A model generated the notes under the pieces. The model saw only the letters and a list, made by a program, of their open reading frames with translations, ran no database searches and was not told the origin of the DNA. Positions 10,306 through 64,000 of a stretch of DNA of 64,000 nt are shown here, in pieces. The DNA is from Amoebophrya sp. A120 (Eukaryota > Protista > Dinoflagellata): positions 261,746 to 325,745 of the forward strand of contig CAJINV010000028.1 in NCBI GenBank assembly GCA_905178155.1, given 5' to 3'. The translations under genes and the position numbers were made by a program. Position 1 is the stretch's first letter, and the number at the start of each line of letters is the position of its first letter.

Positions 10306-10481
10306 GGAACATATTTTTTTAGTAGAACAAGTAAAAATATAACCCTGATGTCTGTCGTGTGGTAAAAGCTACAACTACATAACGCCGCGGGCGGAAGTTC
10401 AGCTTTCGCTTCAGAAAGAAAAGCAAAAGAATCAATCTGGTATAATTCCCATGAGCTGCTCGTGCTCGTAACAAAATTGTT

Positions 10482-13722: not shown

Positions 13723-13834
13723 TAATCATTGGAACATCAAGTAAAAACTGCGCAGTGTGTACTGTGGCAAAAGCCGAGGAAAGTTGAAGCTCATCTTTCG
13801 GTTTACATTTACAAAAAGAAATAAGAGCGTCATA

Positions 13835-25133: not shown

Positions 25134-26029
25134 AGTTTCCAATTATGAACTGTTAAATTTACAACTCTTGGACGAGGACGAAGATGAGTTGTTCCTTCTT
25201 CTGGGCGATCTTGTTTGAAAAGGTGGACACAGTACTAGAAACAGACTCAGATGATGAAAAAACGACAAGAATTTGCGGTGGTTGAAAGATGAAAGCCCCT
25301 CACTATTTGCATATATTGACGTCAATGACAAGCACATAGGAACGTTTTCTTCTACACTTGTTCTAATCTACTATGGTGTCTGGTTTATTCCAAAGAAAAC
25401 TGCGATTGCCAGTTCTACAATACTAGGCACCACCAGAACTTATAGAAGAAGTGCACAAATCCAATCTGGAACTTGATCCGTTTGATGAGTTTTGCATTTC
25501 TCGCTGCGTCAATCAAAGGCAAGAAAGTCGCGGCGAGAAAGCTCCAAATCAAAAAGTCTTGGACGCAACAAGCCGGGCAAATCATGCACTATTCGTTTTA
25601 TTAGTTGCCCGTGCATTCGTGTTGGTGTTCCTCCTGGACGTGCGCATTCTTCCTCCTTCTCACAAAAAATGGCAAGCAACACCAATGATCGCGAAACATC
25701 AAAACTCATCGATAGATGACGAAGCTCTGCTGATCAAAAGTTCCTTTCTCATGATCGGGGCTACGAACTCTAATGGAGCATGACGCTTCGTGAAGATTGC
25801 GGATCGTCCGGGGTTCTTGATGTGGATGGACATGGATCATTGGATCTTCCTCTACGACATCCTGAAATAAAAGTTGGAACCTAGTCGGCTGGTTCGGCCA
25901 CGGGAACTCGCAAGGCAAAATCCGCATGTTCTGGGCGGCACAAAAAATCGCTCCTCAGAGCAAAACCTTCTCCTGATCTGATTATTGCTGCCGCAAGATC
26001 CCCAGGAAGATCCCCTGGAGACATTGCGA

Positions 26030-27062
26030 TAGCAATAATTAGGTGCGCGATGCACCGCATTTTCTGGGCCGCCCAAAAAAGCGACTCTGCGAGCAAAACC
26101 TTCTCCCGGTCTAATTTTTGCTGCCGCAAGGTCCCCAGAGGAGCTTGCGGCAGCAATAATTAGGTGCGGGAAGCGCCGATGTTCTGGGCGGCCCAAAAGA
26201 TCGGCCCTGCGAGCAAAACCTTCTCCCGGTCTAATTTTTGCTGCCGCAAGGTCCCCAGAGGAGCTTGCGGCAGCAATAATTAGGTGCGGGAAGCGCCGAT
26301 GTTCTGGGCGGCCCAAAAGATCGGCCCTGCGAGCAAAACCTTCTCCCGGTCTAATTTTTGCTGCCGCAAGGTCCCCAGAGGAGCTTGCGGCAGCAATAAT
26401 TAGGTGCGGGAAGCGCCGATGTTCTGGGCGGCCCAAAAGATCGGCCCTGCGAGCAAAACCTTCTCCCGGTCTAATTTTTGCTGCCGCAAGGTCCCCAGAG
26501 GAGCTTGCGGCAGCAATAATTAGGTGCGGGAAGCGCCGCATGTTCTGGGCGGCCCAAAAGATCGGCCCTGCGAGCAAAACCTTCTCCCGGTCTAATTTTT
26601 GCTGCCGCAAGGTCCCCAGAGGAGCTTGCGGCAGCAATAATTAGGTGCGGGAAGCGCCGATGTTCTGGGCGGCCCAAAAGATCGGCCCTGCGAGCAAAAC
26701 CTTCTCCCGGTCTAATTTTTGCTGCCGCAAGGTCCCCAGAGGAGCTTGCGGCAGCAATAATTAGGTGCGGGAAGCGCCGCATGTTCTGGGCGGCCCAAAA
26801 GATCGGCCCTGCGAGCAAAACCTTCTCCCGGTCTAATTTTTGCTGCCGCAAGGTCCCCAGAGGAGCTTGCGGCAGCAATAATTAGGTGCGGGAAGCGCCG
26901 ATGTTCTGGGCGGCCCAAAAGATCGGTCCTGCGAGCAAAACCAAAAAGGTCTAATTTTTGCTGCCGCAAGGTCCCCAGAGGAGCTTGCGGCAGCAATAAT
27001 CAGGTGCGGGAAGCGCCGCATGTTCTGGACGACCCAAAAGATCGGCCCTGCGAGCAAAACCT
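26030..27062. repeat. 120-bp tandem repeat, ~8 near-identical units with degenerate flanking units; each unit contains a 20-bp-stem hairpin
   Basis: CTAATTTTTGCTGCCGCAAG recurs at 26111, 26231, 26351, 26471, 26592, 26712, 26833 and 26951. Confidence 0.97.
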
Positions 27063-30403: not shown

Positions 30404-30647
30404 TATTCACTGCAACTATGTCTGGGTCTGGAAGAGCGCAGTTCTGTAATGCTTGTCTCGCATGAGTCTTGAAAATTTAATACGTGAGCATCTTGTCTGT
30501 CATGCAACCACGCAGTTTGTCATGCGGAGAACGAAACACAAAGGAGCTCAGATACTTCTCAAGCATGGCAGTGTACTGCAGTCGCGCGCCCACCATTCAC
30601 ACACTAGCATCACAACTTTCCAGATCAAAACATATTTGCAATGCATG
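30404..30647. mobile_element. TIR intronic element, family A
   Basis: Diverged TIRs; TSD GTGCA. Confidence 0.85.
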
Positions 30648-37414: not shown

Positions 37415-37890
37415 CTCATCGAAGGACATTTGAAGTGGCCACCTCAACTTCCCCCCATCGAAGGAAATTTGAAATGGCCATTTCAACTTTCCCTCATCGA
37501 AGGAAAATCGAAGTGCCCACTTCAACGCTCCCTCATCAAAGGAAGCTCGCAGTTGCCATTTCAACTTTCCCTCATCGAAGCAAGGAAATTTGGGATGGCC
37601 GCTTCAACTTTCCCTCTTCGAAGGAAATTTGAAGTGGCCACTTCGCCTTTCCCTCATCGAAGGAAAATCGACGTTACCGCTTCAACCTTCCCTCATCGAA
37701 GGAAATTTGAAATGGCCCCGTCAACTTTCCCTCATCGAAGGAAATTCGAAGTGGCCACTTCAACTTTCCATCATCGAAGGAAAATTGAAGTGACCACTTC
37801 AACCTTCCCTCATCGAAGGAAATTTGAATTGGCCACTTCAGCTTTCCCTCATCGAAGGAAAATCGAAGTGCCCGCTTCAACTTTCCCTGA
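37415..37890. repeat. 39-bp minisatellite, ~12 copies, internally palindromic
   Basis: Consensus TTCAACTTTCCCTCATCGAAGGAAATTTGAAGTGGCCAC. Confidence 0.95.
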
Positions 37891-39905: not shown

Positions 39906-42900
39906 TCATCGCGTTGGCGCCATTTCAAACGCCCACAGTGAAGCCTTCCCCGGGTAAGCGTGAGTCCGCATTTGGTGTACGATCAGACTCGGCGCCGAGC
40001 AAAAACCGGCGACGATACCATCCCCGTAGCCGATGAACGTTGGCGCAGTTGTATGGAACTGCAAATGTGCCTGGGACTGGAAAAATCCAACTTGTGATGC
40101 GTCCTGCTGTAAACTCACAGAAAAATTTGTCTTGAGCGGCTAGGAAGAGGTGCTCCGTTTGGGTCAATATACTGCAACGGTAATTCTCATGCGGGGTAGC
40201 AGTATGCATTTTTCTATAAGCCCTTCTCAAATCTGTGATGCTATGACCTGCACTCCAGTCCAAAAGGTGCATTCAGAATGGCTGATCGCATTCAGAATCT
40301 GCTGCATGAGAAACTTCTGCACTCGGCCAGACGCAGACCTAGATTTAGATACATTTGCATTCCATAAGTCGCCGCAAGGTACATCTCCAGCGCAAGGAAC
40401 TATCGTACGAAAAAACTGTCTCAGTCTCAACCCCTTGCAGTTTCAGCAAGACAAATTGGCAAACTGTGCAATGGAGATTTTTTGTTTTTTGCTTTGCCAA
40501 AGCAAGAAACAAGAAATCTCTATATGCGTTCAGACAGCAAAAGAAAACACATGACATGTGAAAGACATGTCACGCATGACAAAAAACCGTCTCAAGGTCG
40601 TCAAGGTGTCAAGGTGGAAGTTGCGCATTACTACTTAGCTGAGACTGAGACAGTTTTATCTCACGATACAAGCTCGACCGGATGCAGTGGCTGCTCCAAA
40701 TAACCAGCTCCAATTCGGATAACTGTCATCGGACCTTCACTGCGTTCTTCTTTAGAAGCGGATGATAAATATCCGCTATCTTCGTCTTCATCCGCACGAC
40801 GTGCGGCTGATCCTACCTCGTCGTGGCCGCTTTCAGTGACTCCTCGTTCTGGCGCGCTTACTGCCCGCGCCAGTCGTCCTGGTGGCGGTGAATTTACGGG
40901 AGGGAACGCCGCAATGGCGAGTTGGCCCGCGCTGTCCAGGTAGGCGCGAACGGTAGGGCGGCCGTACTTCGCGTGCATGCGCTGCGCGAAATGCAACATG
41001 TCACGGCTGAAAGGGTCTTCGTTTGACATCACGTAGAGCGCCTGGCGAGGCTGTGCAACAGAATCCGGATCAAATACTGGGGCCTTGTGTTCTCCATTGT
41101 CGTGGTGGGTCTTTGTCTTTGCAGTATTACTTCTAGCGCCAGTCGCAGCTTCTGAAGATTTTGCCGGGCGCTGATCGATGACTTTTTCCAGCTGGCGAGG
41201 CCGGGTCGTGGTGGTGTTCTGAACTAGGAGTGGTCCCTCATATGCGAGTTTCGTTCCCACCAGCTCAGCGAAGCGAATGGGCGTAGCTTCGCGATACTGG
41301 TCAAGTTTCCGCGGTTGTGAGCCGAGTTCGCGGTCTCCGCGGCGCCAGTGTACCGCCGCGTCGAGGTGAACTCCCCGAGCTGCGAGTTTTGCCCGCACTT
41401 CCTCCCCGAGAAAACGCACCTTTTTGCTGAACCGCAAGGCAGACCAAATACTCGGACCGAGGAGCTCCGCACGAAGCCCGCCGTACCGCGCAAAGTGCAG
41501 GCGGACACTTTCGTATTCCTCCAGGAAATAAAAGTACAAACCAATGTGCACAGCGGATTTGAAAAGACCACCGATAGAGGTACTACTTGGCGGATGAATT
41601 ATATCATGATGACCTTCGCGCACAGCAGCAGCTCCCACTCCCTGTGCGTCCACCACAATTTTTTCCGTCTCGTCGACGTCGCCACCGCGTTCATCTGAAA
41701 GGGCGGCGCTAGTAGCGCGCAGGGGGACCCAAGAAGCTGTTGCAATTCTATTTTTATCCTCGCCGGTGCCCTCAGAAGCTGTAGGAGCATCCTCGAAGTC
41801 CCGTAATTGACCCGTTCTTTCTTCGGCTGACGAAATAAATGTATCCGAAAAAGTAACCTCGTCCTCTCGATTCGCGCGCAGCTCCGCCCGCCGGACCGCT
41901 TGCTGGACTGCCATGGAAACCGCCGTTTCGTTCACCTTCCCCGGTTTGGAAAAGTCCTTGGCGCAGGAGAGCTGGCCGATCCGGCTTTTCTCCTTCGACC
42001 CGAAAAATGCGTAGGAGTACGATTCGGAGTTTTCTTGGTCATCGTGCTGTAACGTGGGTGCAACTTGTCTGGCGACGTCTGAAGAGGAGACAACAAAGTT
42101 TTCGCAAACGAATTCTGCAGCCGTGTCGTTCTCCAGCGGCAGATCATCTGTGAGAATCACAGCATCAAATTGTTGCAACTGCTGGTCGGAGTTGTGACCA
42201 GCCTCCTCGAGGAGCCGCATCAACCCGTCGTCCGCAGCCGCACCAGTAGAGCTGTCACCCTTTATTGCATTTCCTCCCGCCACCAAACCGCCCATGCCCC
42301 AGCGTTCCCGCAAGAACCTGTCTAGAAACTGGAGGTCGAAAAGCGCGGAAAGTGGTACGCTTCCACCATTTTTCACGTCGCAGGCCGTGCTATCAGGAGA
42401 AAATCTTCACCATCTTCACAACGTTGTCTTTTGTATTCTGAATCACAACTTTGAGTTGTTTCAAGTTGACATTGTCCAGCATCTGTATCTTCAGGTGTAA
42501 GTAGTCAACAGTCTTCATCACATTGACAGCCTTGCCTTGCAGGTCCAGCATAGAAAATAAGTACGTACATAAAAAACAGCAGGAATCTGTACTTATTCGG
42601 CCTCGATGCTGCATGTTCCCCTCCGTTCTCCATCTCCGTTGACCAGATGCATTTGTTCTTTCTTCAAAGTCGTAACAAGCTACGTAGTTTTGTTACCAAA
42701 TAAACCTTGTGCTTGTGGTGGCAAAAGTAGCCTTGTAAATTTCTTTTCCGTACCTGCCCATCTGGTTCCAGTATTCCCCTGGGTCTTCGTGCGTGCAAGT
42801 CGTGCAGTCGGCCGGGTCGAAGGGATGGTGCTCTGTGTAGCTGAGCCGCGGCAGCTGGAGAAACGCAGTCGGGCCCTGAGCGGCCACGAAACGCAGGGTT

Positions 42901-45894
42901 TCTACGAAATCAAACAACTGGTTACCGAACAATTCTCGGCAAGGCCCCACGATGCCCAGGTAGGAGAATACCACGCGGGGAGAGGAACTAGCCGCTTCGA
43001 CCACGGGTTCGCTTGGTTGATCTCCTCGTGCTCGTGTCGACGAAAGCCGAGCCAAGAACGACCCACTCAGCCAGTTCCGCGGTAGCCAGGAGGTCGTTGA
43101 ACTGCTACTGTCTCGTACAACTTCAGGTTGTTGTAGTTCTTGTGCCGCATGATCTACTGCGGTACTACCAGGTAGTTCTTCACCGCTATAGTCAACCTTT
43201 GTCACGGGTGTCGCGGCGACTGAACTACTTGTCCGCCAAGCGTCGGGATTGAGAAATCCTGGAGCAAGGGCAACGGGCATCAAAGCGTCGGTTGTTCCGG
43301 AAATCACCGCCCTATTGCCTTGTTCTTCCGGAGCTTGTTCTTCAACCTCTTCCGTACTAAGTCGGCCACAGGCGGCAACCACCGCGGCCAAATTGCGTAT
43401 GAAAAATGCGTCCTCTCGCTGGCGCAGCCGCTTTTCTAGCCCAACGCACCTGAGCTTCGAGAGGAAATGACCCGGGGAAAAATTTTCGTCTGGATCGATG
43501 TCTTTCTTCTGGAGATAATGCCTTCCAGCCTCGAGAAAGTCGGCTGCGTAAGCTTCATCGACAGCACCCGCAACCAGGCTGCGGGAGAGGTGTTCCTCCG
43601 ATGCGAAAACCGAGGTCGACTTCTGCGCAACGCTGACTAACGTGAAACTCGCACTAGTGTGGTCCGACAAAAGAAGCTCAAGGAGTTCACTACGCCCAGC
43701 ATCGACGCTCCCTGCGGGGAACGCGGTCGCGGGTAAAAGCAGTGTAGCACCACATTCGCGTGGGTCGAAAAATTTCCTCGGGCACTGCGCTTTGACCTCT
43801 TCGCTGAGAAGAGGCTCGTCGACTGTCGAATGGTGCGCTTTGACCTCTTTGCTGAGAAGAGGCTCGCCGCCCGAATTATGCTGCGGCATCTCGACAAGAC
43901 AGAGGTTGCCGGGTCGTGTGTCACCTTGCGGCCCAGGAGGTCCACTTACTTCAACAGGCACCCCTGTCAACAAACGCAATGTCGCACGAATATTGCGCAG
44001 TTCCTGCTCCTTCAGCCGATGAAGAAGCTCTTCTTGCTCTGGCAGCTCTTGCGTAGTTCCAGTGTGGCCGTCTGCTTCATGCGCCACCGGTAGTTGTTCT
44101 GAGCTCGAGAGGACGGCAACGGTACACAGCGTGTTCAATAAAACGGCGGCGCGTCGCTGTGGCTGTGCGACGTCGAACGGGGACCAATTCCAATAATCAT
44201 ATGCAGCCGCAGGAGCTGCAGATGGTGGGTGGTGCTGTCGTGACCCGCGGTAAAAACTTTTTTTCGTCAAGTACTCCAGGGCCTCTCTGTAGGCCTCGAG
44301 TAGCTCTTGCAAACTGGAGCTAACGAGATGTTGAGAGGAGGACAAGTGTGTCCGATACGGATTTATTTCGGTCTTGTAGTTCCGCTCCGAGACGATTATG
44401 CTGATTTGGCGGGCCTGGAGGTTCTTCTCCTGGTCGGAGGACGCGACTTTGAACTCCCCGGGCCCGGGCCCGGCTGAAAAAGGAAGAGTTTCTGGTATAG
44501 ATTCACTCAAAGGTAGTTCTTCACGAAGATCTGCTTGCCCATCACCCCCATGATCTTCACGCACTAGTACCGCTACAAGCACTTGCGGCCACCGTAAACC
44601 TAAGCTCTGCCGGCGAAGAAAGATGGTCTCCCGGTAGGCTGGCCAGAGCTCTAGCGCGTCTCGGAAGTAGGACGCCAGCAGGCCCAATTGGATGGTATCA
44701 AATGTAAAAATGTCTGGGTCTGGAAACTTGTGATGCTGTGTGGCATATCATGAGGAGGCCACAATTGCTGGCTCAGCATGACAAGTTTCTGAGCTTCTAG
44801 GTGTTGCCTATTCTGCATGACAAACTACGTTTCTGCATGACAGAAAAGTGGGGCTCTTTGTTAATGTGCATGACAGATTTAAGAGTCATGCCAGACAAGC
44901 ATGACAAACTTGCATTCTTCCAGACCCAGACATTTTTACTTTTGATAGATGGCGTCCAGATGCCACGCGCTCCGCTCCAGGTACGCGGCGACATCCCGAG
45001 AAAATTCGGCCTATCCTAAGCAAAAACGTACCCACCCCATAGTCAAGTTGGGAATCTAGCAACACAAATCTCCAAGTTTTGGGAGCTGTGCATGACAAGT
45101 TTTCCTCTGCAGTGTAGTGCTGGTTGGCAGGGGAAGCCGCATGAGAAAGCCATTCTCTCGTCCCGTTTGCAGCAGTACAAATTCCAAAACACGACTGAAA
45201 ATGCCTCTCATGGAGGCGCGCACTACAACTGTTCCTGTCAGTGCGCATTTGCATGACAACTCTGGGGTGGGGATGTTTTTACTGAGGATACGGCCCCGCA
45301 GTGCGTTATGTACTCCAGCAAATGATCGACCACTAGTTCAGATCCTCGTCTCCCAGCAGGGATCACTCGCTGTCGCGTGTTCCCGATAACCCAGTTTGCC
45401 GTGGCGTCGCGGCGGGAGAGATCTTCTTCCCCGCCGTCGCCGCTGCTGGTGGCACGGTAGTGTTTCCACGAAGCTGCTGCACGACCTGCAGCGCCGGCCG
45501 ACGTGGCCGAACCGTCGGGATGTAGTTGACCTGCAGCTGCAAAAATGGCCACATCTTCTGGACCATTCTCCAAAGCGGTACAGACGGTCCTTGCGTCAAC
45601 GACCGTCGCTTCATTCTCGGATCCTTGTGGGGCGGTCGCATTGATTTTTTTGCCAGGGTAATTAGCGAAACGGGATTTATTCCCTGCCCTTCTCGCGCCT
45701 GCCACTTCATCTTGCGAAACCTCGGATCGTGCGTAATCCTCCTGGTCATGCTTGGCCGCCGTACTACTGGACCACGACGAGGTAGTGGACCACGACGAGG
45801 GGGAAAAGACAACATGAGCGTTCGGTCCTGCACGCCACCAGACATCGCAGAAAGCTTGGTGGTCAAGCAAGCACGTTGTCAGAGGGCTTGGCAT
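39906..45894 (-). CDS. Large protein (~1512 aa) with a C-terminal GT-B O-fucosyltransferase-like domain; start uncertain
   Basis: Motifs AVHWRRGD, LYVMSNE and, only after removing two elements, ALEMYLAATAPTFIGYG...S..SLIVHQMR. Four element introns plus one GT-AG intron give 4539 nt in frame. Confidence 0.7.
40052..40366. mobile_element. TIR intronic element, family A
   Basis: Family A-like TIRs; TSD AGTTG/AGTCG. Confidence 0.88.
40401..40668. mobile_element. TIR intronic element, family E
   Basis: TATCGTACGAAAAAACTGTCTCAGTCTCA...TGAGACTGAGACAGTTTTATCTCACGATA; TSD decayed; frame restored. Confidence 0.88.
42390..42705 (-). other. GT-AG intron (316 nt) whose 3' end looks like an element terminus
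   Basis: AG|GTTTAT...TTTTCTCCTGATAG|C; joins two long ORFs in frame. Confidence 0.65.
44696..44947. mobile_element. TIR intronic element, family A
   Basis: Family A TIRs; TSD GATGG. Confidence 0.95.
45012..45290. mobile_element. TIR intronic element, family B
   Basis: Family B TIRs; TSD CGGCC. Confidence 0.95.
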
Positions 45895-47174
45895 GAAGCG
45901 CCGAGGAAGCTGGTGGAGGACACCGCTCTTGCTAGTTTTGCTGATCTTCTTTTCAACATGTTCGTGTGGATCTGCTGGAGTCTTACTTTGCTCTTTTATG
46001 AACAGTGGACATCGTCTACTTCAAACTCTCAACATCTTGATTGCAGCCACCACTTTTTTATTATGCCCTTGTTGTGGCCATACTGCGACGCGCCCTTCGC
46101 AATACGATCACAAGCACACGCACCAAAAAAGAAAAAGCATTTAAGTATAGTATGCTGCACCAGACCGATGAAGAAAAATTGGATCAAAAAGCTTATTTTC
46201 GGTCACTCCCACATGACATCGCTTGGTAACAAGGTATGAGCCCAGTGTATCTGCTTTTCACAAGATCCTCTGTTTCGTCAGGAACCAAAGCTTGAGCGGT
46301 CAGATCGATTCGGATAACAACTGATCCTTCGTTATTCACCTTCACGGAGACACAGTCTTGCCATGCTCACACAATTATCATCACAACCTTTCAGCGGTAC
46401 CTTACTAGGCAAGAGGGATTTCAATTTGCATGTTTGGCTGCTGATCTAACTCCGGAACATCTTTTTTTTCCTGAATGGCTAGCACAGCAGTCATCCCCCT
46501 TCGTGGGCTTTCAATTCGCATAGGCACAGTGTTCGATGGACGCGAGACAAGAACAATGAGTTTCGTATTCCCTCCTGCTCCGATGGGCATGGCACCTACG
46601 TAATGTCTATCAAGTACATTCTTTGTTGTTTGAATCCTGTGTTGTGTTGTACTCGAGCAACTGCACACTGAGATAAAAAACGATTTCCGTAATTATATTG
46701 TATCCAAACAAACAGGAAACGCCTCCCGTTTGCGCAGCGCGATCAAGTCGCGTAGAATGACATTCATGTTGATAAAAGCCGGACAGTAGTTGTAGGTGTC
46801 CGTTGTAGATGCCCGTGGAGAACAATCAATCTGTGTCTATTACAACCTTCTCCGCTAAACTTCCAAAACCTCCACTCCCGCTGGGAAGATAGCGGCGAAA
46901 ATACATCAAAGCGTCGTTGTTGTGCTAAAAGTATTCATTGGCTGTTGCTCATGCTGAGTTGTATTATATCTAGCATTTTGCGTCGAAAGAAACTAGGTGA
47001 GATGTTGTGATACATGATACACTTATCGACAAAAATCAAAAATAGTTCACCGAGCGAGTTGCTGTTCCTCTGTTTCGTTAATAAGCTCGAAGCTCGTCTT
47101 AGCTCTTGCGCGCAACTTGTGCAGTCAAAGTAAGTAGCAGACCTAGCTAGTCCTTGTTGAAGAGTCGAACCAAC

Positions 47175-52398: not shown

Positions 52399-55300
52399 TC
52401 ATTCCGCCTCGGCAGGAGCGCCATGCAGTTCGCGATATCGGTTGGAGTACTGCTGCCGGAGCAGCCCCCGCCACGTTTGCATGGTGGCCGCCCGCTTTTC
52501 CGCGTTTGCGTTCCGCATGACCGCCCGCTTTTCCGTGAGCAACTGCCGGTCTGACACCAGCTTGCACAATTCCAGGATGGTCCGGAACACGATGATGCCC
52601 GGCGATTTCTCAGCGTCGTACATGGAGCTGGTCTGCAGCCACTGGAGTTTTTTGACCCGGGTGGAGAAGTCCAGGGCACCCGCGGACCCCGTGGATCCGA
52701 GGTTCCCGTCGTCATTGAAGACCAGGTCCGCCAGGTACCTCTATGGATTGCAAAAGTGTCTGGGTCTGGAAAGTTGTAATGCTGGGTGGCGTATCATGAG
52801 GATTGCACAAGTGCTGGCTCAGCATGACAAGTTTCTGAGCTTATAGGTGTTGCTTATTCTGCATGACAAACTGCAGCTCTGCATGACCGAAAAATGGAGC
52901 TCTTGGGTAACGCGCGTGACAGATTTAAGAGTCATGCCAGACTAGCATGACAAATCTCGCAATCTCCCCGACCCAGACATTTTTGCAATTGATAACCTCC
53001 GGCTCGGCACGAACATGGCCAGCGACAGGGAGTTATCCTGTGCAAAAGTATCGCACTCGTACTAATTGCCTTTATGCATTACAAATCTCCATCCCAAGGT
53101 AAAACAGCATGACAAAATCCATTTGTCATGCTGAGCTAATTTGTATTGCAATTTATACTACTACGATGCTTTTGCAGTTCATAGGAGTACAGCTCGTGAA
53201 AGGCGTAGGTTTCGAACTCGTGCGGCACGTACACGATGGCTGTAAAGCGCCGCTTGATTTCTGCGAAACTCATGCCCTTGCCCGTCACCAGGTGTGCCTG
53301 TTTGCCGCACGAAGGTGTGCTGCGCAGCAGGAGCACGATCTGGAGCCCCAACCGGAGGGCATTGTTCCCCCGCGCCCAAATGCCGACGTCCTCCAGGTCA
53401 GCGGAAGCGGAAGATTTCTTGAGGTTGTTTGGTATGTCCGCAGCAATGGAAACGGCATACTGCTCTCCGTTGGCGTCCCGTGTCAGTACGGTGACGCGGT
53501 CACGAGGGCCGCTGGTTGTGCTACTTTCCGGCGTGCTATTCATTTTACTGGAAGCCTCGTCGCGGTCACCAGGCTCTCCCGGAGCGTTCTCCCCTGGAGG
53601 GAGTCGTAGTCGTTCTTGTGAGGATATAATTTCACCATCGGGTCGTGCTGGAGCCGACGATTGTTCACTAGTCTCCTGCCCACGCAGTGCTTCCTCCGCT
53701 GGTCGGAAAAGAAGATCGCCCTCGGCATTCCGTACTGCGATGCTGGATCGGCTTGGCGATGTACTAGTTGACGCAGACGCTGCGTTTTTGATACTATTTC
53801 CGCCTTCATCCTCTTCCATCTCTGCAAACCTTGTGTCGTCCAAGTGTAGCATCAGTGGCTGCAGTATCCAAGAAAAAAACTGTGTAAGTGTAAATTTGTG
53901 TTGCAGAAAATGCCAAACTGTTACACTTGTCGTGCTGGACATGCATCAGAGGCAATTTTCGTGCGTGTTTTCACGTACTAGCCACGCATGACAAGTTTTC
54001 TGTGTTATGCAGAGCAAACTTGTGATGCTATTCCTCAAAGAAACTTACACTTACACAGTTTTTTGCCTGGATATGCAGCACCGGGACAAGGGCCGGAGAT
54101 GAGGTAGCCGCGTCTTTCAGTTGCTCGGTCTCCTGCAAAATCCGCGACAAAATCAGGTTCGAAGTGGAGACGATGGCCGTACCCGCGGCTCCGCTGTGCA
54201 CCAAGGTTCGGCCTAAGCTCCAAAAGCGTCGCCATATCCCGAGTAAAAACGTGTCCATCCGATAGTCAAGATGGGAAATCTGCTAGACAAATCAACAAGC
54301 CCTGGTTGTTGCGCATGACAAATTTGGGCGCGCAGTGTAGTCGTGTTTACCTAGTGCAGCGACATCACAGATCTTGCACATCATGCTGATTCGGGCATCA
54401 CAAATCTCAAAACACAACTAGAGAGTGCTTGTCATGGGTCTCCGCACGAGAAGCGCTTTGAGGATGAATGCAGATTTGCATTACAACTCATCTGCAATCG
54501 AGGTGACGTTTTTACTCTGGATACGCCAGGCCGCAGATTCGCCGGCTGCGGCAGACGCGTCCGTGGCGGAGTTGAGAAAAACCGCCTTCGTGCACCGGCC
54601 TTCCACGAAGCACGGGGATACAGTGGCTTCTCTTTCTGGTATTATAGTAGCTGACTCAGATGCAGCTCCTGGGTATACGTCGTTTGGGGCGAGAAAGTTT
54701 GGCGAAATTCCAAACCAATTCGACTGGATTAGCAAGACTGTGTTAGTTCTACCTCCACTGGTGCCGTGCTGCTGGCTCTGCTTGTTTTTAACCGCCGTCT
54801 GTTGCTGGAAATGTTGCAGCAGGTATTTGTTCCAGACCTTGTTCAACTCCTGTTGTAATAACGCACACAAAAAGAACGGCGTGCTGCAGGAGGTAACCAC
54901 GAGCAGCTCAATAAAGGTCGTGCTGGTGCTGTTGGCGTCCTTAATCATAGAAGTATCCCTTGCGCGAGACATGACTTCGTCTTCCCACCAGTTTTCGATG
55001 ATTCTGCTTACGTGTGTTTCCACCACGTCCAACTGTGACAATCCGTTATGGAAGTGTCAGGATTGAAATCGACGAAGTTGAAATAACTTGTAATGCATAA
55101 TATCCATACAAATTGGACCCGCATTTTCTAGTCGGTGCATGACAAATTTTGTCCATGCCGGAAGCCAGTTTGTCATGCTGTTCAGGGCAAAGGGGCTCCG
55201 CTCTGTGATGCTAATCAGCAGCCCAAGTCCCGACCCTTACCAGCACTACAATCTGCCTCCCTTGCGTCCTCTGCAATAGAGGCAATCTTTGCGTTGCATT

Positions 55301-58300
55301 TTCTGCATGACAACCTATTTGAATTTTGACGATTTCAATCCTGACACTCCCATAACCGTGGTTTCCGCCGTAGTGCGGATCGTTTACGCTTTCGTCCTAT
55401 TAAGAGGAAAAATACCCCCTCCCCATATCGAAAAGGTATGTTTCCGGAAATTTGTGTTGCTGATTTGAGACCTCAAATCACGTCTGTCTTGCAAGAAGGC
55501 AACTCCACAAGCTCCGTAGCATTGTGCAGGCGGTTTGTGATGCTGATGGGCCTACAGTGCGGACGTTTCTCATGCTAGACGCCTAGGCCAGAACCTCTCT
55601 ACTTAGGCTTAGTACGGGGCTGCATTCCTCTCCAGCAAGACAGATCTTATTTGTGTACGCAAATCCTGCATCAGAAACTTCGTTTTGATATGGGGAGGGG
55701 GGATTTTTCCTTTTGATACGTCCACCTCGACAAACAAGGCCCCCAAGTCGTCCAGTTCGTTGCCGCAAAACCGGGGGTTGGGGTTCACGCAGCGACAGAC
55801 CTCCGGCGCGTTATGACAGTGCACAACTACTCCCCCTCCCTCTCATTTGTCATGCATACTCGCCGACTGCACCACATCAAAAACCTTTGCACCGTTGCCG
55901 CAAGCAGCTTCGGACGCAGACGATCTAGTCATGCAAAATCCTAACTCCAGTCCCTGCCTTGCCCTTGTGGCACTGTTTGCACGACAAATTCTGGAGGCCC
56001 AGACAGTACTAGACTAGGCACACAAATTTCCCCTGCATAGGCTCCACTATTGCTGTTCATGCAATGCAAATGAGGGGGAGGGGAGTTGTGAATTGTCATA
56101 GGCATGGCGGCACTGGTAAAACCCACCCCAGAACTGCTCCTCGTCGCGGCCCTCGACAAAGACCTGCTCTTCCACTAATGCCCGTCGCACCGCCAAATGT
56201 GCCTCCTGGGCGAAGGGCGCGTGCGTGCCGAAGCTGGCAAGCAGGGTCCTTCGATTCTTCGCAGTATTGATCGACCGGTGGCGACCACTGCTTTCTTCAC
56301 CGTAATTCGCCGTTCCACGACCACGGACCTCAGAATTCTTATTATCCACAGCATATCCTTGTGCCGCGGAAGTAGATGGTCCAGCAGAAGTGCGAAATAA
56401 GCTAGAAGTTTCTCCCCTGGCTAGCGCCGCATTGTACTCCGTAGCGGTCATGGGCCAAACGATGCCCGGGACTAGCGTGAGGCGGAAGAAAGAACCAGTG
56501 CGCGACGCTGGGACCATTTCGGAAATCGAGGAAGCTGCAGCAGTGCTTAAAGACAATAAGTAATCTGGCTCTTTATCTTCGGCACTTCTCGAGCCACCTG
56601 CACCTTCCGGGAGTGGCCCAGCACTTCTGCATAATCTCTTCGTTTCACGCGGCGGCAAAGCGTAGTTGGTACTACTATCCGCGACACGCAGACTACTCCC
56701 TTTTTCCCCGTGGACTAGCGCGCCACGGCTCACTGAGGTAGCGTTTTTCCGCAGCATCGCCGCTCCCCTCTCCTCAACGTCTGCTGTGGTCCCCGTCAAA
56801 TCTTCACCCGCTGCATTCGCGGACAACATCCCAGCATCTTCGCCCTCTTGCCGCTTTTCCTCAGGGGGGACGGGCTGCAGTACTTGGTACGATTTGTCGA
56901 AAAACAGCGCGCCGGCCCGCGTAGCTGCGCGGACTACGTGAGTGCTTTTTTCTGCTATAGCACTGGTCGCCGCACGACTACCGTCGCAGGTGATTGAGGC
57001 AGAAACGGTGCCGTCTCCAACATCTACTCCGGTAGACGTTTCACTGGTTGTACTGGTGGCATCACCAGCTGCGGTTCCGTCGCCGGCACCCCCACCGCTG
57101 CTCAGCCACACTAGGTCGAAGTGTGCCTGCATATGAACTGCAAAAGTATCGTACTCGTACAAATGCATGACAAATTGTCTCAGCATGAGAAACAAAATTT
57201 GTAATGCGGATTTACGTTGAGAAAAAAATTTGTAATGCATGATTGCAATACGAGTACGATACTTTTGCACAGGATACTGCAAGTACCGCTGCAAAACCGT
57301 GAGGTCCGCCGAGTCCGCAGGGTGGTCGCGGTCTCGGTGCATCGCCCAGAGGCTGTAGAACGTGCCCTATTGTAAGGAAAAATCCTCCCTCCCCATATCG
57401 AAAAGGCAAGCCGCAGAAAATTTGCAATGCTGATTTGTGACCGCAAATCGCTTCTGTCTTGCAAGAAGGCAAGTCCGCAGGCTCCGCCGCATTACGCCGG
57501 CGGCTTGTGATGCTGTTGGTCCTACAGCGTAGACTTTTGCCATGCTGGGGGCCTACGTCAAAACCTCGCTGCCCCGGGTTGGCGTATGCCTGCGGTTCTC
57601 TACTGCAAGACAAATCTGATTTGTGTACGCAAATCCAGCATCACAAACTTCCTTTTCGGTATGGGGAGGGGGGATTTTTACTCACGATATGCCCTGCAGC
57701 GTGTTCTCATGGAACAGCTGCTTCGGCACGAACCCCTTCTCCCGCCACCACTCAAAAAGGTATTTACCGTCCATTTGAAGCTGCTGCAGGTTCGGACTTT
57801 GATGCGGGGCTCCCGTGTAGTCGGATATCAACTGTACAAATGTCTGGGTCTGGCAGAGTGCCAGACTTGTCATGCAGGTTTTCCATGACCCATAAGGTCT
57901 GGTATGTAGGACATAGCATGACAGATTCTGTGAGAATTCTATCATGCCTATCCTGCATGAGAAACTGCCTCTCGATCAGGTCAAAAGTTGACAGCTTTTG
58001 GTAATCATGCAACACAGATTTCTACATGATTCAGATTTAGCATGGGAAGTTCCTTTGTTCCAGACCCAGACATTTTTGCATTTGATATCGGATTCCGCTT
58101 CGCGAACATCAAACACCGCGGCACCGTAGAGGCGCTCCACGCGCAGCCTGTGTTCGTGTTGCAGCAAGTGCGCAAAACTGGAGTGAATCAGGTACGCATT
58201 GGGAAAGTGGTCGTCCGCGTGCAGGCGGAACAGCACGTACCCGTATCCTGTGCAAAAGTATCGTTGTACTCGTATTGCAGACATGCATTTACCAATCTTT

Positions 58301-61300
58301 TTTTTGAGGTCAATCTCCATTACAAATTTTATTTCTCATGCTGAGGAAATTTGTAATGCATTTATACGAGTACGATACTTTTTCAATTCATAACCCGTAG
58401 GGCGTCGCGATGCGCAGAATCTCCCCGAGAGAGCAGCCCCGGATCATGTTCTTGAGCAAGGAGGAATACTGCGAGCCCACATCCGTGTACACCGTGGGGA
58501 GCCAGGAACCAAACCCGATATCCGGAGGCAGAAAATAGGCTATGATTTCCATGGCGATCAGCAGAGTTCTCGTGCGCATCTCCGTGTGCAGCTTGTGCAG
58601 AATCTTTGACAGATACTCACAATCGCGGTTGTCGAGATCAATCTTCAACAGCGTGATGGGTGCGGCACTATGGAGCTGCGCCGGCGTAGTTCCTTTGATA
58701 TTCACAGAAAACGCGTCGTGGTTCTTCTGCGTCGTGGCCGCGGTGGTCGTCCTCAACGCGGTCCTGCGGAAGAGCGGGTGCTCGTTCAGAAAGCTGTCCA
58801 CCGTCTCCGGACTCACGTAGTCCGTCACGAGATGAAGGAGCTTACGTTCTTGCGACGAAGATGACGTCTTTGCGGTCTTCGCATCTCGTGCCGGTCCTGC
58901 TTGCTGGTGTACAAGAACATCTGTGGTTCCGCTAGATGAAGAAGTTGTAGCTTCTTTAGTACCTCCTGTTGCTTCAGATGACACAAAGGTCCGGCTTTTG
59001 AAGATCTGATCGCGCAACACCGACACGCGATCGGGGTCGCCTTCGAACAAAACGCCCCCGGCGCCAGCGAATTCCACCATGGTGTGTGCTTATCGTACGA
59101 AAAAAGTGTTTCACTGTAAGGATTTTGCAGGTTTTGCATCACAAGTTTGTTCTACATGACAGAGAAAATTTGCCATGCAAGGTTCCTGAGGGAAAACACA
59201 GCTAAAAATCCCCTGTCTTGCATGTGTAGCAAGACAAACACTTGTGACTGTGAGATGCAATTTCTGCATTACAAGTTTCCAGTGAAACAGTTTTTTCTGG
59301 CGATAGTGCTGGATCCACGTCCCAGTCGGATCGGTCGTCCTCTTCCATCACTCCATATCATGAGTAAAACATCTCCACACCAGAGTCAAGATGCGGATTT
59401 TGCAACACAAACCTAGGAGTTTTAGGAGTCACGCATGACATAAACAGACTGTGCTACTACGCATGACAAGTTTCAGTCCGTAAGGTAGTGCAAGTTAGCA
59501 AGGAAAGCCGCATCACAAATCGACCTTCTCATCCTGTTTACAACATTACAAGTTCCCAAACACGATTGAAAATGCCTGTCATGGGGTTGCGCATCACAAA
59601 TGTTCCTGTCATGGCAAATCTGCATGACAACTCTGGGGTGGGGACGTTGTTACTTAGGATACTCCAGCCCCCAGATTTATCACGAACCGGTCCGCCGCGC
59701 GGGTCGCACCAGCGTCCTCCGCGGCCCTGACAATGTCGAACAAGTTTTGCTGCTTCTGTAGAAGTTGTAATCCGCCTCGCTGCAAGGTTGATGCTGCGCC
59801 CGCGCCCTGTTTCCTCGTCGTGTGCGGTTCTTGCGCTGGTGCCTCGTTTTCAACAGTAGACGGAGTAGTTGTTGACCAGTCAATCAGCTCTCGATACACG
59901 TCGGAGGGAGGAGCGGCAGGAGGAGCACCCCGAGCTACAGGTGGCTCCTGCTCAGGACCGCTTATCATTCCTGTCGCATTTTGATTTTCTTCTTCCACCT
60001 CCGCGCCTGCTGTGCCATTCTTCGGCAGACCGAGAAAGTCCTCGACGATCGTGGCCGCGTCGGCCTCGGTGAGGAACTGAAAGTGCTTTCTGCTGGGCAA
60101 CACGGCGTATCGTACGGCTTCCAGAATGTTCCACAGCAGCTCCTTGCGGTGCGGAAACCGCTCGCTTTCGAACCGGTCGTGCTCTAGCACCGAGGGGAGC
60201 AGGAACCCCGCGCAGCTCGGCGGGCTGACGGCGTGCGAGGCCCAGAACTCCTCCCACGGGTTGGGCAACCCCGACTGGCGCTCGTACTCATCCAGCGCCT
60301 CGTTTTCGCCTTCCTGCTCCGCGGCTTCTAGCGGGTCCTCGCTTCTCCGCTCCACCTATGAATTGCAAAAGTAGTATCGTACTCGTATCAATGCATTACA
60401 AATTTCCTCAGCATGAGGGATAAAATTCGTATATGCTGATTTACCTTAAGAGAAAGCTTTGTCGTGATGCATGATTGCAATACGAGTAAGTACGATACTT
60501 CTGCACAGGATACCACCTCCCGTAGCCGGTGGGGGACCTGCACCAGTGCCTTCTGGACGTGCCGGTTCTGCTCCCCGTGCTCGAAGAGGCGCGCAAACGC
60601 CCGGATGGAGGCCGTTTCCGGCGCGCGGGGGCCATGGTGGCGAAAGAAGGCCGCCAGCTCGTCATACAGTGCGGTGCACACGTGGTGCAGGTGCGTCAGC
60701 ACCTGCTTCTTCTCGTTGCGGACCGCGTGCTCCTCCGTGAGCACCGTGGCTCCGTCCAACCGGTCCAGGATCGCTTCGTTGCGGAGAATGATTTCTATGT
60801 TGGTCTCGCCAACCTCGTTCAAAACTTCGTCAAAGGACAGGGAGCTGAAATAGGTCATGTTGCTCTTTCGCTTCTCGTATGAAATGCAAAAGTATCGCAG
60901 TCGTATAAATGCATTACAAATTTCTTCAGCATGAAAAATGAAACTTGTAATGCTGAGTTTCCTTGAGAACAAGATTTGTAATGCATGACTACAATACGAG
61001 TACGATACTTTTGCACAGGATATCTCGTCCATCAGGTCGTGGTGTTCGTCGACCAGGTCGTCCAAGTGCGTTAGCTGCACGTTCCAGTGCATTTTCAGAC
61101 ACACGTACTGCCCGAGCCAGCAGGTAAGCTCGAACACCAGCTGTGCGATCTTCTCCAGAAATTGCCTCGCCCGCGGGTACACCTGGATCTGATGATGAAG
61201 ACTGGAAAACTCGAAAAACTCGTTCGAACAAACCATATCGTCCCCCTCCGGATCCAGTATCTCGCTGGCGTTCTCTTCCCCGCGCAAGTCAATTTGGGCG

Positions 61301-62380
61301 GCAATGCGCCTCCGCTCCTCCTCATCGCCGTTCAGCGCGCGGCTATCAAATGCAAATATGTCTCGGTCTCTCTGGAACTTTGCTAGACTCGCCATGCAGG
61401 TTTTCCATGACCCATGAGGTCTGTAATGGAGGACCTAGCATGACAGATTCCGGGAGATCATCACTATCATGATGCCTATCCTGCACGAGAAACTGCCTCT
61501 CAACTTGATCAAAAGTGGACAGCATTTGGCAATCATGCAACACAGATTTTTGCATGATTCAGGTTTGACATGACAAGTTCCAACCTTCCGGACCCAGACA
61601 TTTTTGCAGTGCATAGCGGTCCCACAATTGCCAGGACCGCTTGGCGCAGTGCAGGAGGATGTCGGAGCCCAGCGCCAAAGGCACGCGGACGGTTCTCAAA
61701 AGCTGCCTGTCCCTTGCGAGCCCGTCCTCCTGCTCGTCCTCTCCTGCCTCCGTCGTGCCCTCCAGAAAAGTGGCCGGATCCTGTTCCATCAACATCTCCC
61801 CGGCCTCGTCGACCATGAACCGCGTGTGCGTGAGCGTCACTTTCTTGGTCTCAAGCTCCTGCAGCGTGTCCAACATGTTGCGGACCAACCAGCTCTCACG
61901 GTAGACGTTGTCGCTCGCCAAAATGGTGTTTCCCGAAGCGTGCGGCTCCTTGGCATTCGGAAGGCAAATTTGCAGTTCCGCGGGCTGCAGAGCCTCAAAC
62001 AGCCACGGCACGGGGCAGCTGTGGACATCGGAGTCGACCAGCCGGACGGGATCGTAATCCTTTGTGTGCTGCAGCAGCACTTGCTCATTGCTTCGCTGGT
62101 ACCGAAAATTGAAATTTCGGCTGGCTTTGGACGGCACCGCAGTGGATTTTTTCCGCCGGTGCTGGGGGTCTTGCCTTTCTCCAAAGATCGTCGAGTGCGC
62201 GGGCGCCTCCGGAAAAACCTCGCTCCTCTCCCGACGGTCCCGGAGCCATGCGATGTAGTCTGGAATAACATGGGCAAAGATGTCCCAGCGGTTCTGGTAG
62301 CAGCTGGCGCGGTCAGGGAGAAAAAGCAGATGGCATGTGACGATGAGAACACCTCCAGGGACGAGACGAGCACGGGACAT
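52399..62380 (-). CDS. Large protein (~2036 aa) with a hydrophobic N-terminus and a central FkbM/Methyltransf_21-like SAM methyltransferase domain; 16 element introns
   Basis: 9982 nt minus 3871 nt = 6111 nt; all 16 junctions in frame. Motifs FVINLGAG...GGVLFEGDP, LLKIDLDNRDCEYL, IAMEI and GCSLGEILRIATPYGYVL. Confidence 0.82.
52742..52994. mobile_element. TIR intronic element, family A
   Basis: Family A TIRs; TSD ACCTC. Confidence 0.95.
53034..53183. mobile_element. TIR intronic element, family D (short)
   Basis: TATCCTGTGCAAAAGTATCG...CGATGCTTTTGCAGTTCATA; TSD GGAGT. Confidence 0.93.
53865..54073. mobile_element. TIR intronic element, family G
   Basis: TATCCAAGAAAAAAACTGTGTAAGTGTAA...TTACACTTACACAGTTTTTTGCCTGGATA; TSD TGCAG. 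Confidence 0.95.
54235..54523. mobile_element. TIR intronic element, family B
   Basis: Family B TIRs; TSD CGCCA. Confidence 0.93.
55047..55354. mobile_element. TIR intronic element, family H
   Basis: TATGGAAGTGTCAGGATTGAAATCG...CGATTTCAATCCTGACACTCCCATA; TSD TCCGT/ACCGT. Confidence 0.93.
55398..55718. mobile_element. TIR intronic element, family C
   Basis: TSD CGTCC; closely similar to 11595-11915. Confidence 0.95.
55812..56100. mobile_element. TIR intronic element, family J
   Basis: TATGACAGTGCACAACTACTCCCCCTCCC...GGGGGAGGGGAGTTGTGAATTGTCATA; flanks CGCGT/GGCAT; frame restored. Confidence 0.88.
57132..57276. mobile_element. TIR intronic element, family D
   Basis: Family D TIRs; TSD CTGCA. 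Confidence 0.95.
57368..57689. mobile_element. TIR intronic element, family C
   Basis: Family C TIRs; TSD TGCCC. Confidence 0.93.
57826..58087. mobile_element. TIR intronic element, family A
   Basis: Family A TIRs; TSD TCGGA. Confidence 0.95.
58244..58392. mobile_element. TIR intronic element, family D, inverted relative to 57132
   Basis: Family D TIRs; TSD ACCCG. Confidence 0.95.
59091..59305. mobile_element. TIR intronic element, family E
   Basis: TATCGTACGAAAAAAGTGTTTCACTG...CAGTGAAACAGTTTTTTCTGGCGATA; TSD GTGCT. Confidence 0.93.
59356..59661. mobile_element. TIR intronic element, family B
   Basis: Family B TIRs; TSD CTCCA. Confidence 0.93.
60357..60512. mobile_element. TIR intronic element, family D
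   Basis: Family D TIRs; TSD CCACC. Confidence 0.93.
60878..61022. mobile_element. TIR intronic element, family D
   Basis: Family D TIRs; TSD TCTCG. Confidence 0.95.
61344..61615. mobile_element. TIR intronic element, family A
   Basis: Family A TIRs; TSD GCGGC/GCGGT. Confidence 0.92.
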
Positions 62381-63239
62381 AATGTTGGCGCCGCAACTAC
62401 GGAATCACCTACCTCATACCAGGCTTCATATTCTCTGTTTACTAGGATGCTCCACCAGCAAAACGTGAGTGAACTACCCTAGAAGGATCCAAAGCGCTAA
62501 ACTTATTCGTATGCGAGAGCTAGAATTACAATCTCGTCTAAGTACCAGATCGAGTTCTGAATTGTCTCCGGGGGATCAACAGCCAGAAGATCACTTGTGT
62601 GCAAAGTGCAAAGCACTTGAAGATCAACACTTACCAGAAGACGCAGAGTATGTATAAATATGCAAAAGCTAAAGCATGGTGATGGTACTGCTGCTGACGG
62701 TCCTCGAAGTAGAAACGTAAAGCAGAGGAAAGAGGCGGGCGCCGTCATCTTCGCGATGTTTCATAATGTTGGACGACAGGGCAAAACACTGAACAACATC
62801 CTGTGTGTCCCGAGAGCGTTTCGCTTCAGATAGATGGCGCGAAACACCTGCGCAAATCAAACGAACTCCGTTCGTCCATTACTCTGCTTCTGTCCTATGA
62901 CTTGTGGCGGGCCATGTTCAGAAACCTTTGGTTTCTGACTCAGCCATCGGCCCCGACTCAGTTTCAAAGAGTGTGGCGAACCTCTGTAACAAATAGATAC
63001 AGAGAAAACGAAAACCGCGCGTATAATTGGAAAAGTTCCGGAAGTGGCTCCGGCTGCCGATCAATTTAGTGATACGGCAGCGGATGCGTCAACGCGATGA
63101 CACTATCCGCCGCGACGCCCATCACACATGTCTAATGCCTCAGAGCTTCGGTCCGTGTGCTTTGCCAACCTGGTCCGCCGATACCGCGCCCCTCTGTTTT
63201 ACTGTTAGGAAAGCCGTCGCAAGAACTGCGAACGCTTCC

Positions 63240-64000
63240 AATTTTGCCAACCTGGTCCGCCGGGTTTAGAGGAAGCGGGGAGCCCAACCGGAAAACGGCC
63301 GCCGCCTCCGATCGGCCCCGGGCCTGTTTTGCCTGTAAAAAGGGGCCGCCCTGACATCCCCGGAGCCTTTCAGGTTTTCGCGGTGGCTTTGGAGCCTGCC
63401 TAGGTCCCCGGAACTTTTCCACTTTTGCCAACCTGGTCCGCCGAGTTGGGAGGAAGTGGGGAGCCCACCCAGAAAACGGCCGCCGCCTCCGATCGGCGCA
63501 GAGCCTGTTTTACCTGTAAAGCGGGGCCGTCTTGCCATCCCCGGAACTTTTCAGGTTTTCGTGGTGGGTTTAGGGCCTGCCTAGATCCCCGGAGCCTTTC
63601 CACTTTTGCCAACCTGGTCCGCCGAGTTGGGAGGACATGGGGAGCCCACGCAGAAAACGGCCGCCGCCTCCGATCGGTGCAGAGCCTGCTCTACCAGTAA
63701 AAAGGGGCCGCCTTGCCATCCCCGGAACTTTTCAGGTTTTCGGGGTGGATTTAGAGCCTGCCCAGATCCCCGGAACTTTTCCACTTTTGCCAACCTGGTC
63801 CGCCGAGCTGGGTGGAAGTGGGGAGCCCACCCAGAAAGCGGCCGCCTCCCCCGATCGACTCCGAGCCTTTTTCTAACTGTAAAAAGGGGCCGCCTTGCCA
63901 TCCCCGGAACTTTTCAGGTTTTCGTGGTGGGTTTAGAGCCTGCCTGGATCCCCGGAACTTTTCCACTTTTGCCAACCTGGTCCGCCGAGTTGGGAGGAAG
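63240..64000. repeat. 181-bp GC-rich tandem satellite, more than 4 copies, running off the end of the window
   Basis: GCCAACCTGGTCCGCCG at 63246, 63427, 63608, 63789 and 63971. Confidence 0.97.

Follow-up and report, generated by a model that had tools for sequence, protein, structure and literature searches.

In this study, we have described a minus-strand gene of Amoebophrya sp. A120 (positions 52399–62380 of the window, the whole 64,000-nt stretch of contig CAJINV010000028.1 that was analysed), which a window scan shows to be broken up by 16 elements of 145–322 nt. These elements very probably belong to the A120 introner class, and they are likely to have been inserted as transposons and to be spliced out together with one copy of a 5-nt repeat, thereby restoring the reading frame. 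The elements sum to 3791 nt. When each is cut out with 5 nt more, 17 exons join into an ORF of 6111 nt, running from an ATG at 62380 to a TGA at 52399, with a predicted product of 2036 residues. The 16 insertions and the roughly 17 fragments joining into a protein of about 2036 residues, as put forward in a preliminary description of this DNA, are thus borne out, as are its several exons of less than 50 nt, of which there are three (45, 38, and 34 nt).

The reconstruction depends on the length removed: cutting out the element plus 0, 1, 3, 4, 6, or 7 nt leaves 26–31 stops, while element plus 2 and element plus 8 are likewise stop-free, because the frame tests only the length modulo three. Only 384 of the 43,046,721 combinations of junction phases are free of stops, and 192 of these end on the TGA at 52399. 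The scan for elements returned 44 candidates in the window versus none in each of five shuffled windows. If retained, 14 of the 16 elements would bring in a stop within 3–49 codons, and elements 8 and 15 would be read through in frame. Third-position GC (GC3) of the exons is 0.65–0.78, versus a GC content of 0.43 in the elements. Judging from the 2036 codons without a stop, the GC3, and the conserved motifs, it is plausible that the gene is under continued selection.

Most of the product is already in the databases. Residues 609–2036 (52399–59968, minus strand) are identical to the public A120 protein CAD7974382.1 (GSA120T00024455001) at 1428 of 1428 positions, with no mismatch and across 13 of the 16 junctions, and the junction peptide TPYGYVLF predicted earlier is present in it. 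The A120 annotation combines transcript alignments with non-canonical sites confirmed by RNA-seq, as described by Farhat et al. (2021, PMC7789003, in the parts consulted), and removal at the RNA level is likely at these 13 junctions, given this transcript-based public model. Homologue scores prefer removal of 5 nt over 2 or 8 nt at junctions 13 and 12, both by profile and by pairwise alignment, and at junction 11 by pairwise alignment alone, the profile there placing 8 slightly above 5 (191.5 versus 190.9); the homologues had been collected with the 5-nt query, which makes this comparison partly circular.

All 16 elements are bounded by TAT...ATA as inverted ends, with inverted arms that reach 62 nt. 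The TAT present at 32 of 32 ends is the search criterion itself; further inside, position 4 is C or G at 30 ends, position 9 is G at 26, and positions 11–14 are A at 28–29 each, with AAA at 11–13 in 25 of the 32. Both copies of the 5-nt direct repeat agree fully in 13 elements, at four of five positions in two and at three in one (76 of 80 positions), and no other repeat length (2–4 or 6–9 nt) gave a systematic match at the 16 elements. Folding z-scores range from −3.2 to −13.5 (25 shuffles per element), as expected of any inverted-repeat element, and are no proof of a role in splicing. In 15 elements, the two ends are predicted to pair with each other over at least 10 of 20 nt; element 2, in its sequence context, is predicted to do so poorly (1.3 of 20), and for elements 2, 11, and 14 the probability of the outermost three pairs is near zero. 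An Rfam search found no match in the window.

Relatives within the window exist for 14 of the 16 elements. One short family is formed by elements 2 (150 nt, 53034–53183), 8 (145 nt, 57132–57276), 11 (149 nt, 58244–58392), 14 (156 nt, 60357–60512), and 15 (145 nt, 60878–61022), with 2 oriented as 11 and 8 opposite to both. Elements 3 (209 nt, 53865–54073) and 12 (215 nt, 59091–59305) are partners in opposite orientations, and elements 6 (321 nt, 55398–55718) and 9 (322 nt, 57368–57689) are also partners. Element 10 (262 nt, 57826–58087) is 81% identical to element 16 (272 nt, 61344–61615), and element 1 (253 nt, 52742–52994) is weakly linked to both. Elements 5 (308 nt, 55047–55354) and 7 (289 nt, 55812–56100) are single in the window; the remaining two are element 4 (289 nt, 54235–54523) and element 13 (306 nt, 59356–59661). 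The repeats are imperfect in elements 5 and 16 (4/5) and in element 7 (3/5); residue 254, at element 16, is G or D depending on the cut register. The family count of the preliminary description, eight, is also that of pairwise blastn among the 16 elements; it falls to seven when copies elsewhere in the window are allowed to bridge them. Both orientations occur in all six multi-member groups of the window and, within the annotated part of the gene, in two of them (2 and 11 versus 8; 3 versus 12), while all 42 securely framed elements of the window sit in minus-strand genes. Across these 42 elements (10 of 52 having been dropped for an unclear frame or a repeat match below 3/5), a wobbling cut register that would constrain both repeat copies found no support, 7 of 14 mismatches being synonymous versus a fraction of 0.41 expected under a fixed register (P=0.32). 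An insertion hot spot was rejected: the 2.6 elements per kb of the gene exceed the 1.42 introns per kb averaged over the genome (Poisson P=0.016), but its neighbours are similar, with two reconstructed ORFs at 3.7 and 4.2 and two others at 1.4 and 0.7.

As regards splice sites, a GT-AG, GC-AG, GA-AG, or AT-AC register is impossible in 13 of the 16 elements; GT-AG is available in elements 1 and 14 and GA-AG in element 6, and there is no common dinucleotide unless the cut is placed at the TAT or ATA edge. Frame-keeping GT/GC-AG pairs lie at most 12 nt away at 10 of the 16 elements but, except for the in-repeat registers of elements 1 and 14, they would alter the protein, and no such altered protein is shown by the public model at elements 1–13.

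We propose that the elements were inserted as non-autonomous DNA transposons by a trans-acting transposase or integrase, whose 5-bp staggered cut would have created the direct repeat; at 145–322 nt they are too short to encode a transposase, and none was identified in this analysis. Each element would then be removed from the pre-mRNA with one 5-nt repeat copy, the RNA level being taken from published RNA-seq work. The shared end motif (TAT, then C or G, four unspecified bases, G, a further unspecified base, and AAAA) occurs in inverted form, and the two ends are predicted to form a long hairpin by base pairing, which would bring the repeats together; provided that both ends are cut in one and the same register, any position within the repeat would yield an identical mRNA encoding the predicted 2036-residue protein with its one class I SAM-methyltransferase-fold domain. 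Internal family and orientation would be irrelevant, because the signal is symmetric and terminal. In this regard, the family-independent removal claimed earlier stands insofar as removal is precise whatever the internal family (at the 13 junctions of the public model, with homologue scores at two or three), but the ends share one signal; this signal therefore accounts for family-wide removal, which is end-guided rather than signal-free. Efficiency is another matter: an open frame requires merely some full-length mRNA, and over 16 introns a removal of 0.95 per intron leaves 44% full-length and one of 0.90 leaves 19%.

For the enzyme, we prefer a structure-guided, non-lariat cut-and-join reaction, to which we give roughly an even chance. 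Its model is the nonconventional introns of euglenids, which share the pairing of inverted-repeat ends, the junction repeats, the lack of GT-AG, and a probable MITE origin, and which differ in their CAG/CTG end motif and their lineage; the euglenid introns are excised as circles (PMC11282704, in the parts consulted). More specifically, and more tentatively, a spliceosome-independent, hairpin-guided endonuclease-ligase might read the symmetric TAT...AAAA ends, ignore strand and interior, and always leave one 5-nt repeat. A U1-less modified U2-type spliceosome, in which the hairpin substitutes for recognition of the 5' site, is a serious competitor, although we place it below an even chance. According to the consulted parts of PMC7789003, A120 retains 83 of 89 spliceosomal proteins together with U2, U4, U5, and U6, with U1 not detected; a GT-AG register is possible in two of the elements and a GA-AG one in a third, and the non-canonical introns of Fritillaria have, in the account consulted, been ascribed to the U2 spliceosome. 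However, the retention of a spliceosome is explained by the need to process canonical introns, the other 13 elements offer no canonical register and no common dinucleotide away from the TAT/ATA edges, and a strand-specific branch point or pyrimidine tract is hard to reconcile with copies that work in either orientation.

Upstream of the public protein, we predict a 5' extension of 608 codons (59969–62380, minus strand) across elements 16, 15, and 14, which is absent from the public model, as are these three junctions, the first three of the gene, which are predicted from frame and codon evidence. In exons 1–4, the only open combination of phases out of 27 is the one given by the 5-nt rule, the predicted frame has the better codon log-odds in each of the four exons of the extension, GC3 is 0.78, and residues 4–22 are hydrophobic (mean 1.62), as in a signal or anchor. 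This evidence suggests that some 608 residues are missing from the N-terminus of the public gene model. It is unlikely that the true protein is instead the 1428-residue public one, carrying the same introners, with the upstream codons separate or untranslated or with element 14 mostly retained. That reading would account for the start of the public protein at M609, and it is compatible with domain homologues of 95–675 residues and with the lack of a database protein containing exon 2, in a search that the tool itself notes as weak; a search for a metagenome locus with exon 1 also found none. Against it, no stop separates the two parts, and the single open phase combination, the codon scores, and the hydrophobic start all fit a longer protein. 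Moreover, M609 is the first Met in the translation of exon 4, and a longest-ORF selector would pick it if the transcript alignment had missed junction 14.

The 2036-residue protein is predicted to contain a class I SAM-methyltransferase-fold domain at about residues 696–985 (58153–59707, approximate ends, minus strand), interrupted by elements 13, 12, and 11. As described earlier, its INLGAG...FEGDP region is spread over three exons, with INLG/AG cut by element 13 and VD/PA by element 12. The predicted structure (pLDDT 71, pTM 0.76) has long low-confidence insertions. Methyltransferases occupy the top rows of VIA-align (best Z 10.3, rmsd 3.2, 147 aligned), with RsmD-like proteins as the best matches (Z 10.3) and FkbM 2py6 at rank 32 (Z 8.1); the best Foldseek hit has an E of 0.013, none reaching 0.001. 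Sixteen domain homologues were found at E<=0.001, P0008 being excluded from their alignment as a repetitive and probably spurious match. The Methyltransf_21 match expected for the spliced protein failed to appear: residues 609–2036 match no Pfam family at E<=0.1, and NCBIfam and Pfam give nothing above noise on the A120 protein and the 5' exons. PF05050 (gathering score 22.7) does not match the A120 protein and reaches sub-threshold scores of 16.7, 20.7, and 15.9 bits in 3 of 18 homologue sequences. The domain profile found no solved-structure sequence at E<=1, and residues 800–1428 of the public protein have no shorter relatives among 7995 candidates. With FkbM and other class I SAM methyltransferases, the domain shares a predicted Rossmann-type fold, a glycine-rich motif after strand 1, an acidic residue after strand 2, and a conserved KID-D motif; it differs from FkbM in the absent PF05050 match and in its long insertions. 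SAM binding and methyl transfer are putative.

Excision at the DNA level, removing the element and one repeat in an expressed copy of the genome as with the internal eliminated sequences of ciliates, is very improbable, although symmetric, orientation-free ends and the loss of exactly one repeat would also suit a recombinase. To our knowledge, no germline/soma dimorphism exists in dinoflagellates. Farhat et al. (PMC7789003) nowhere use the words 'excision' or 'genomic reads' in their main text, but the assembly, for which long as well as short DNA reads were used, includes the elements, and 66,565 A120 introns are reported in that paper as supported by RNA-seq. Finally, a pseudogene, or an ORF that arose by chance from freedom in placing the junctions, is hardly conceivable, since, even if short exons are open in two or three frames and the protein has no Pfam or NCBIfam family, a single fixed rule hits about 1 in 100,000 phase combinations, the independent annotation is identical (refuting this for residues 609–2036), and the homologues at E<=0.001 number 16, with a coherent fold predicted across the junctions.

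As a carrier of such introns the gene is unexceptional, and both their class and intron-packed genes with many families are already in print. The consulted parts of Farhat et al. (PMC7789003) report 29,850 A120 introners making up 17% of the assembly, without a transposase, with an inverted motif of TAT, seven variable bases, and at least three As, and with direct repeats of 3–5 nt. The present elements lie in that host genome and share the TAT-N7-AAA inverted ends, the hairpin, the many repeated families, the short direct repeats (5 bp in the legend of Fig. S19), the mean length of about 240 nt, the lack of an internal transposase, and the absence of a fixed splice dinucleotide, 14 of 16 having no GT-AG register. 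With GT-AG possible in only two of the 16, they do not fit the canonical GT/GC-AG introners of the Micromonas and Aureococcus type, whose splice sites are brought along by the element or recruited from the target duplication. The gene is itself in that annotation and nothing of substance differs; what we add is the predicted 608-residue extension and the explicit observation of both orientations, which we did not encounter in the main text of PMC7789003, where 'orientation' is used of genes alone. Gozashti et al. (2025, PMC12130899), in the parts consulted, report that a single Amoebophrya gene can owe tens of introns to introners, and they list a different A120 gene, AMSPA120_T00014092001, that also has 16, of seven families. 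Of 19 of their 58 A120 rows, most read 'TIR DNA, unknown' and show a mixture of splice sites, and the automated repeat lengths are 2 to 5 or missing, whereas here all 16 elements fit 5.

In the open-licence literature, we found no paper that solves the removal machinery of A120 introners, a question posed in the consulted parts of PMC7789003. With one family in both orientations, the gene offers a compact locus and test substrate for how these introners are spliced, and the mismatched repeats of elements 5, 7, and 16 would reveal the cut register. If the endonuclease-ligase proposed here is real, any transposon with such ends that duplicates 5 bp would be harmless in coding sequence.

The gene lies on the minus strand at 52399–62380 and is interrupted by 16 elements (from element 1 at 52742 to element 16 at 61344), which measure 145–322 nt each and 3791 nt summed, begin with TAT and end with ATA. 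They are surrounded by 5-nt direct repeats that are perfect in 13 cases, match at 4/5 positions in two and at 3/5 in one. Excision of every element together with 5 nt, that is, one copy of the repeat (+5), yields a 6111-nt frame running from the ATG at 62380 to the TGA at 52399 and encoding 2036 aa. Excision with 0, 1, 3, 4, 6 or 7 additional nucleotides leaves 26–31 stops in the gene, while +2 and +8 are also open, because the frame tests only length modulo three. The excised lengths are not multiples of three in 9/16 cases, and only 384 of 43,046,721 junction-phase combinations are free of stops. Retention of an element leads to a stop within 3–49 codons for 14 of the 16, elements 8 and 15 being read through if kept in the transcript. 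By pairwise blastn among the 16, the elements fall into eight groups (1/10/16, 2/8/11/14/15, 3/12 and 6/9, with 4, 5, 7 and 13 as singles), or seven when linked via other copies within the window. The preliminary description, with its 16 insertions, eight families and 6111-nt ORF, was accurate on all these counts, and the several exons under 50 nt that it mentioned are three (45, 38 and 34 nt).

A query with exon 6 retrieved a single protein among 2720 candidates, CAD7974382.1 (GSA120T00024455001) of Amoebophrya sp. A120, at 100% identity. This protein corresponds to residues 609–2036 of the reconstruction with no mismatches, spanning the junctions of elements 1–13; the A120 annotation was made from transcript alignments because non-canonical sites are numerous (PMC7789003). 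The introners described in A120, transposon-derived non-canonical introns, carry 3–5-nt direct repeats and inverted repeats composed of TAT, seven less conserved bases and then at least three As, and they amount to 29,850 copies in 1954 families, or 17% of the assembly (PMC7789003). In the gene, AAA occupies positions 11–13 in 25/32 element ends. The window holds 52 such elements covering 13,528 of its 64,000 bases, a count that is the union of two scans; for the second of these, elements with perfect repeats served as the training set. Gozashti et al. 2025 (PMC12130899) report that these introners have produced tens of introns in single genes and list, in their supplement, an A120 gene with 16 introners of seven families. 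The element class, its host, the last 13 junctions of the gene and the many-families-per-gene pattern are all already published or annotated.

Residues 1–608 are absent from the public model, and we have not found this extension in print. Exons 1–4 have one open frame each, and the sole phase combination joining them (1/27) is that of the +5 rule. A codon model built from the annotated exons prefers the predicted frame in all four 5' exons; GC3 in this part is 0.78, and residues 4–22 are hydrophobic. M609 is the first methionine of exon 4, and a model lacking junction 14 would therefore start there. Against the extension, no protein containing exon 2 was present among 44 candidates, and no metagenome locus was found for exon 1. 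We consider it likely that the full-length 2036-aa ORF is real.

No Pfam or NCBIfam family matches residues 609–2036 at E≤0.1. Residues 696–1091 retrieve 16 other proteins at E≤0.001; nine homologues were looked up, and all those with an organism name are from dinoflagellates (Fugacium, Symbiodinium). Their alignments run through junctions 13, 12 and 11, several of them gap-free. With these homologues, themselves found with the +5 query, +5 outscores +2 and +8 at all three junctions in pairwise comparison, and at junctions 13 and 12, not at 11, in profile comparison. A structure model of the domain from a 16-row alignment (pLDDT 71, pTM 0.76) matches class I SAM-dependent methyltransferases, with 2esr at the top (Z 10.3; 147 residues aligned at rmsd 3.2) and the FkbM structure 2py6 at Z 8.1. 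The best Foldseek match had E 0.013, with none reaching E≤0.001, and PF05050 matches three homologue sequences under its cut-off. The domain is thus predicted to work like a SAM methyltransferase; no assignment was obtained for the remainder of the protein.

With 2.6 elements per kb of coding sequence, the gene stands above the genome-wide average (1.42 introns per kb, PMC7789003; Poisson P=0.016), but two neighbouring reconstructed ORFs are denser still (3.7 and 4.2 per kb). The figure of 4.2 per kb belongs to a 476-codon reconstructed ORF at 22194–25142, which holds six elements. Two reconstructed ORFs of 474 and 542 codons adjoin each other on the minus strand at 8120–13725; they are Ser/Lys/Ala-rich, weakly similar and probably tandem paralogues. 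Within this region, a 421-bp tandem duplication (11965–12905, 94% match) copies an exon and its element; both element copies (12070–12326 and 12485–12750) end in GTA instead of ATA with repeats matching at 2/5, and +5 excision of six elements, this pair included, keeps the 542-codon frame (10485–13725). Judging from the sequence of this pair, it may be that neither the repeat nor the end has to be perfect. Three further elements (13954–14221, 22760–23014 and 30404–30647) have an altered terminal triplet (TCT or TTT start, or ATG end) and perfect 5-nt repeats. Tandem arrays occupy 26024–27064 (120-nt unit, 8.7 copies, 96% match), 37415–37888 (39-nt unit, 12 copies, 79% match) and 63236–64000 (181-nt unit, at least 4.2 copies, continuing past the window end). 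At 40664–46020 lie two long minus-strand ORFs, which before splicing have 581 and 684 codons; the latter extends to 928 once two elements are removed, and neither matches a Pfam family.

Insertion would involve a transposase or integrase acting in trans through a 5-bp staggered cut. No such enzyme was identified for the elements within this analysis, nor was one found in A120 by Farhat et al. (PMC7789003); an A120 family that has inverted ends and contains ORFs resembling LTR-element proteins (PMC12130899) is a lead only. A wobbling cut register was considered and is not supported, 7/14 repeat mismatches being synonymous (P=0.32, not significant).

On removal, the element would be taken out with one repeat copy. 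The elements have no common splice dinucleotide: GT-AG is possible in 2/16, GA-AG in 1/16 and neither in 13/16. Within the annotated part, single families occur in both orientations (2 and 11 versus 8; 3 versus 12), as do 6/6 groups with several members across the window, even though all 42 securely framed elements of the window lie in minus-strand genes. This shared strand agrees with the long co-oriented gene blocks of A120 (PMC7789003). No explicit mention that removal is independent of orientation was found in the main text of PMC7789003 or in open-licence literature; figures, supplement and subscription papers (e.g., Roy et al. 2023) may cover it. What the elements do have in common is their end motif, together with a predicted hairpin (folding z = −3.2 to −13.5 across the 16) in which 10 or more of the 20 end bases are predicted to be paired in 15/16.

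As to the machinery, we lean, with confidence evenly balanced, towards a non-lariat endonuclease-ligase route, by analogy with euglenid introns, which are excised as circles (PMC11282704). Somewhat less probable is a spliceosome lacking U1, for which it speaks that U1 is undetected in A120 while 83/89 spliceosomal proteins are present (PMC7789003). Excision of the elements at the DNA level is highly improbable. End-guided, symmetric RNA splicing is the best reading, and the family-independent removal proposed earlier is correct, being accounted for by the ends common to all elements.
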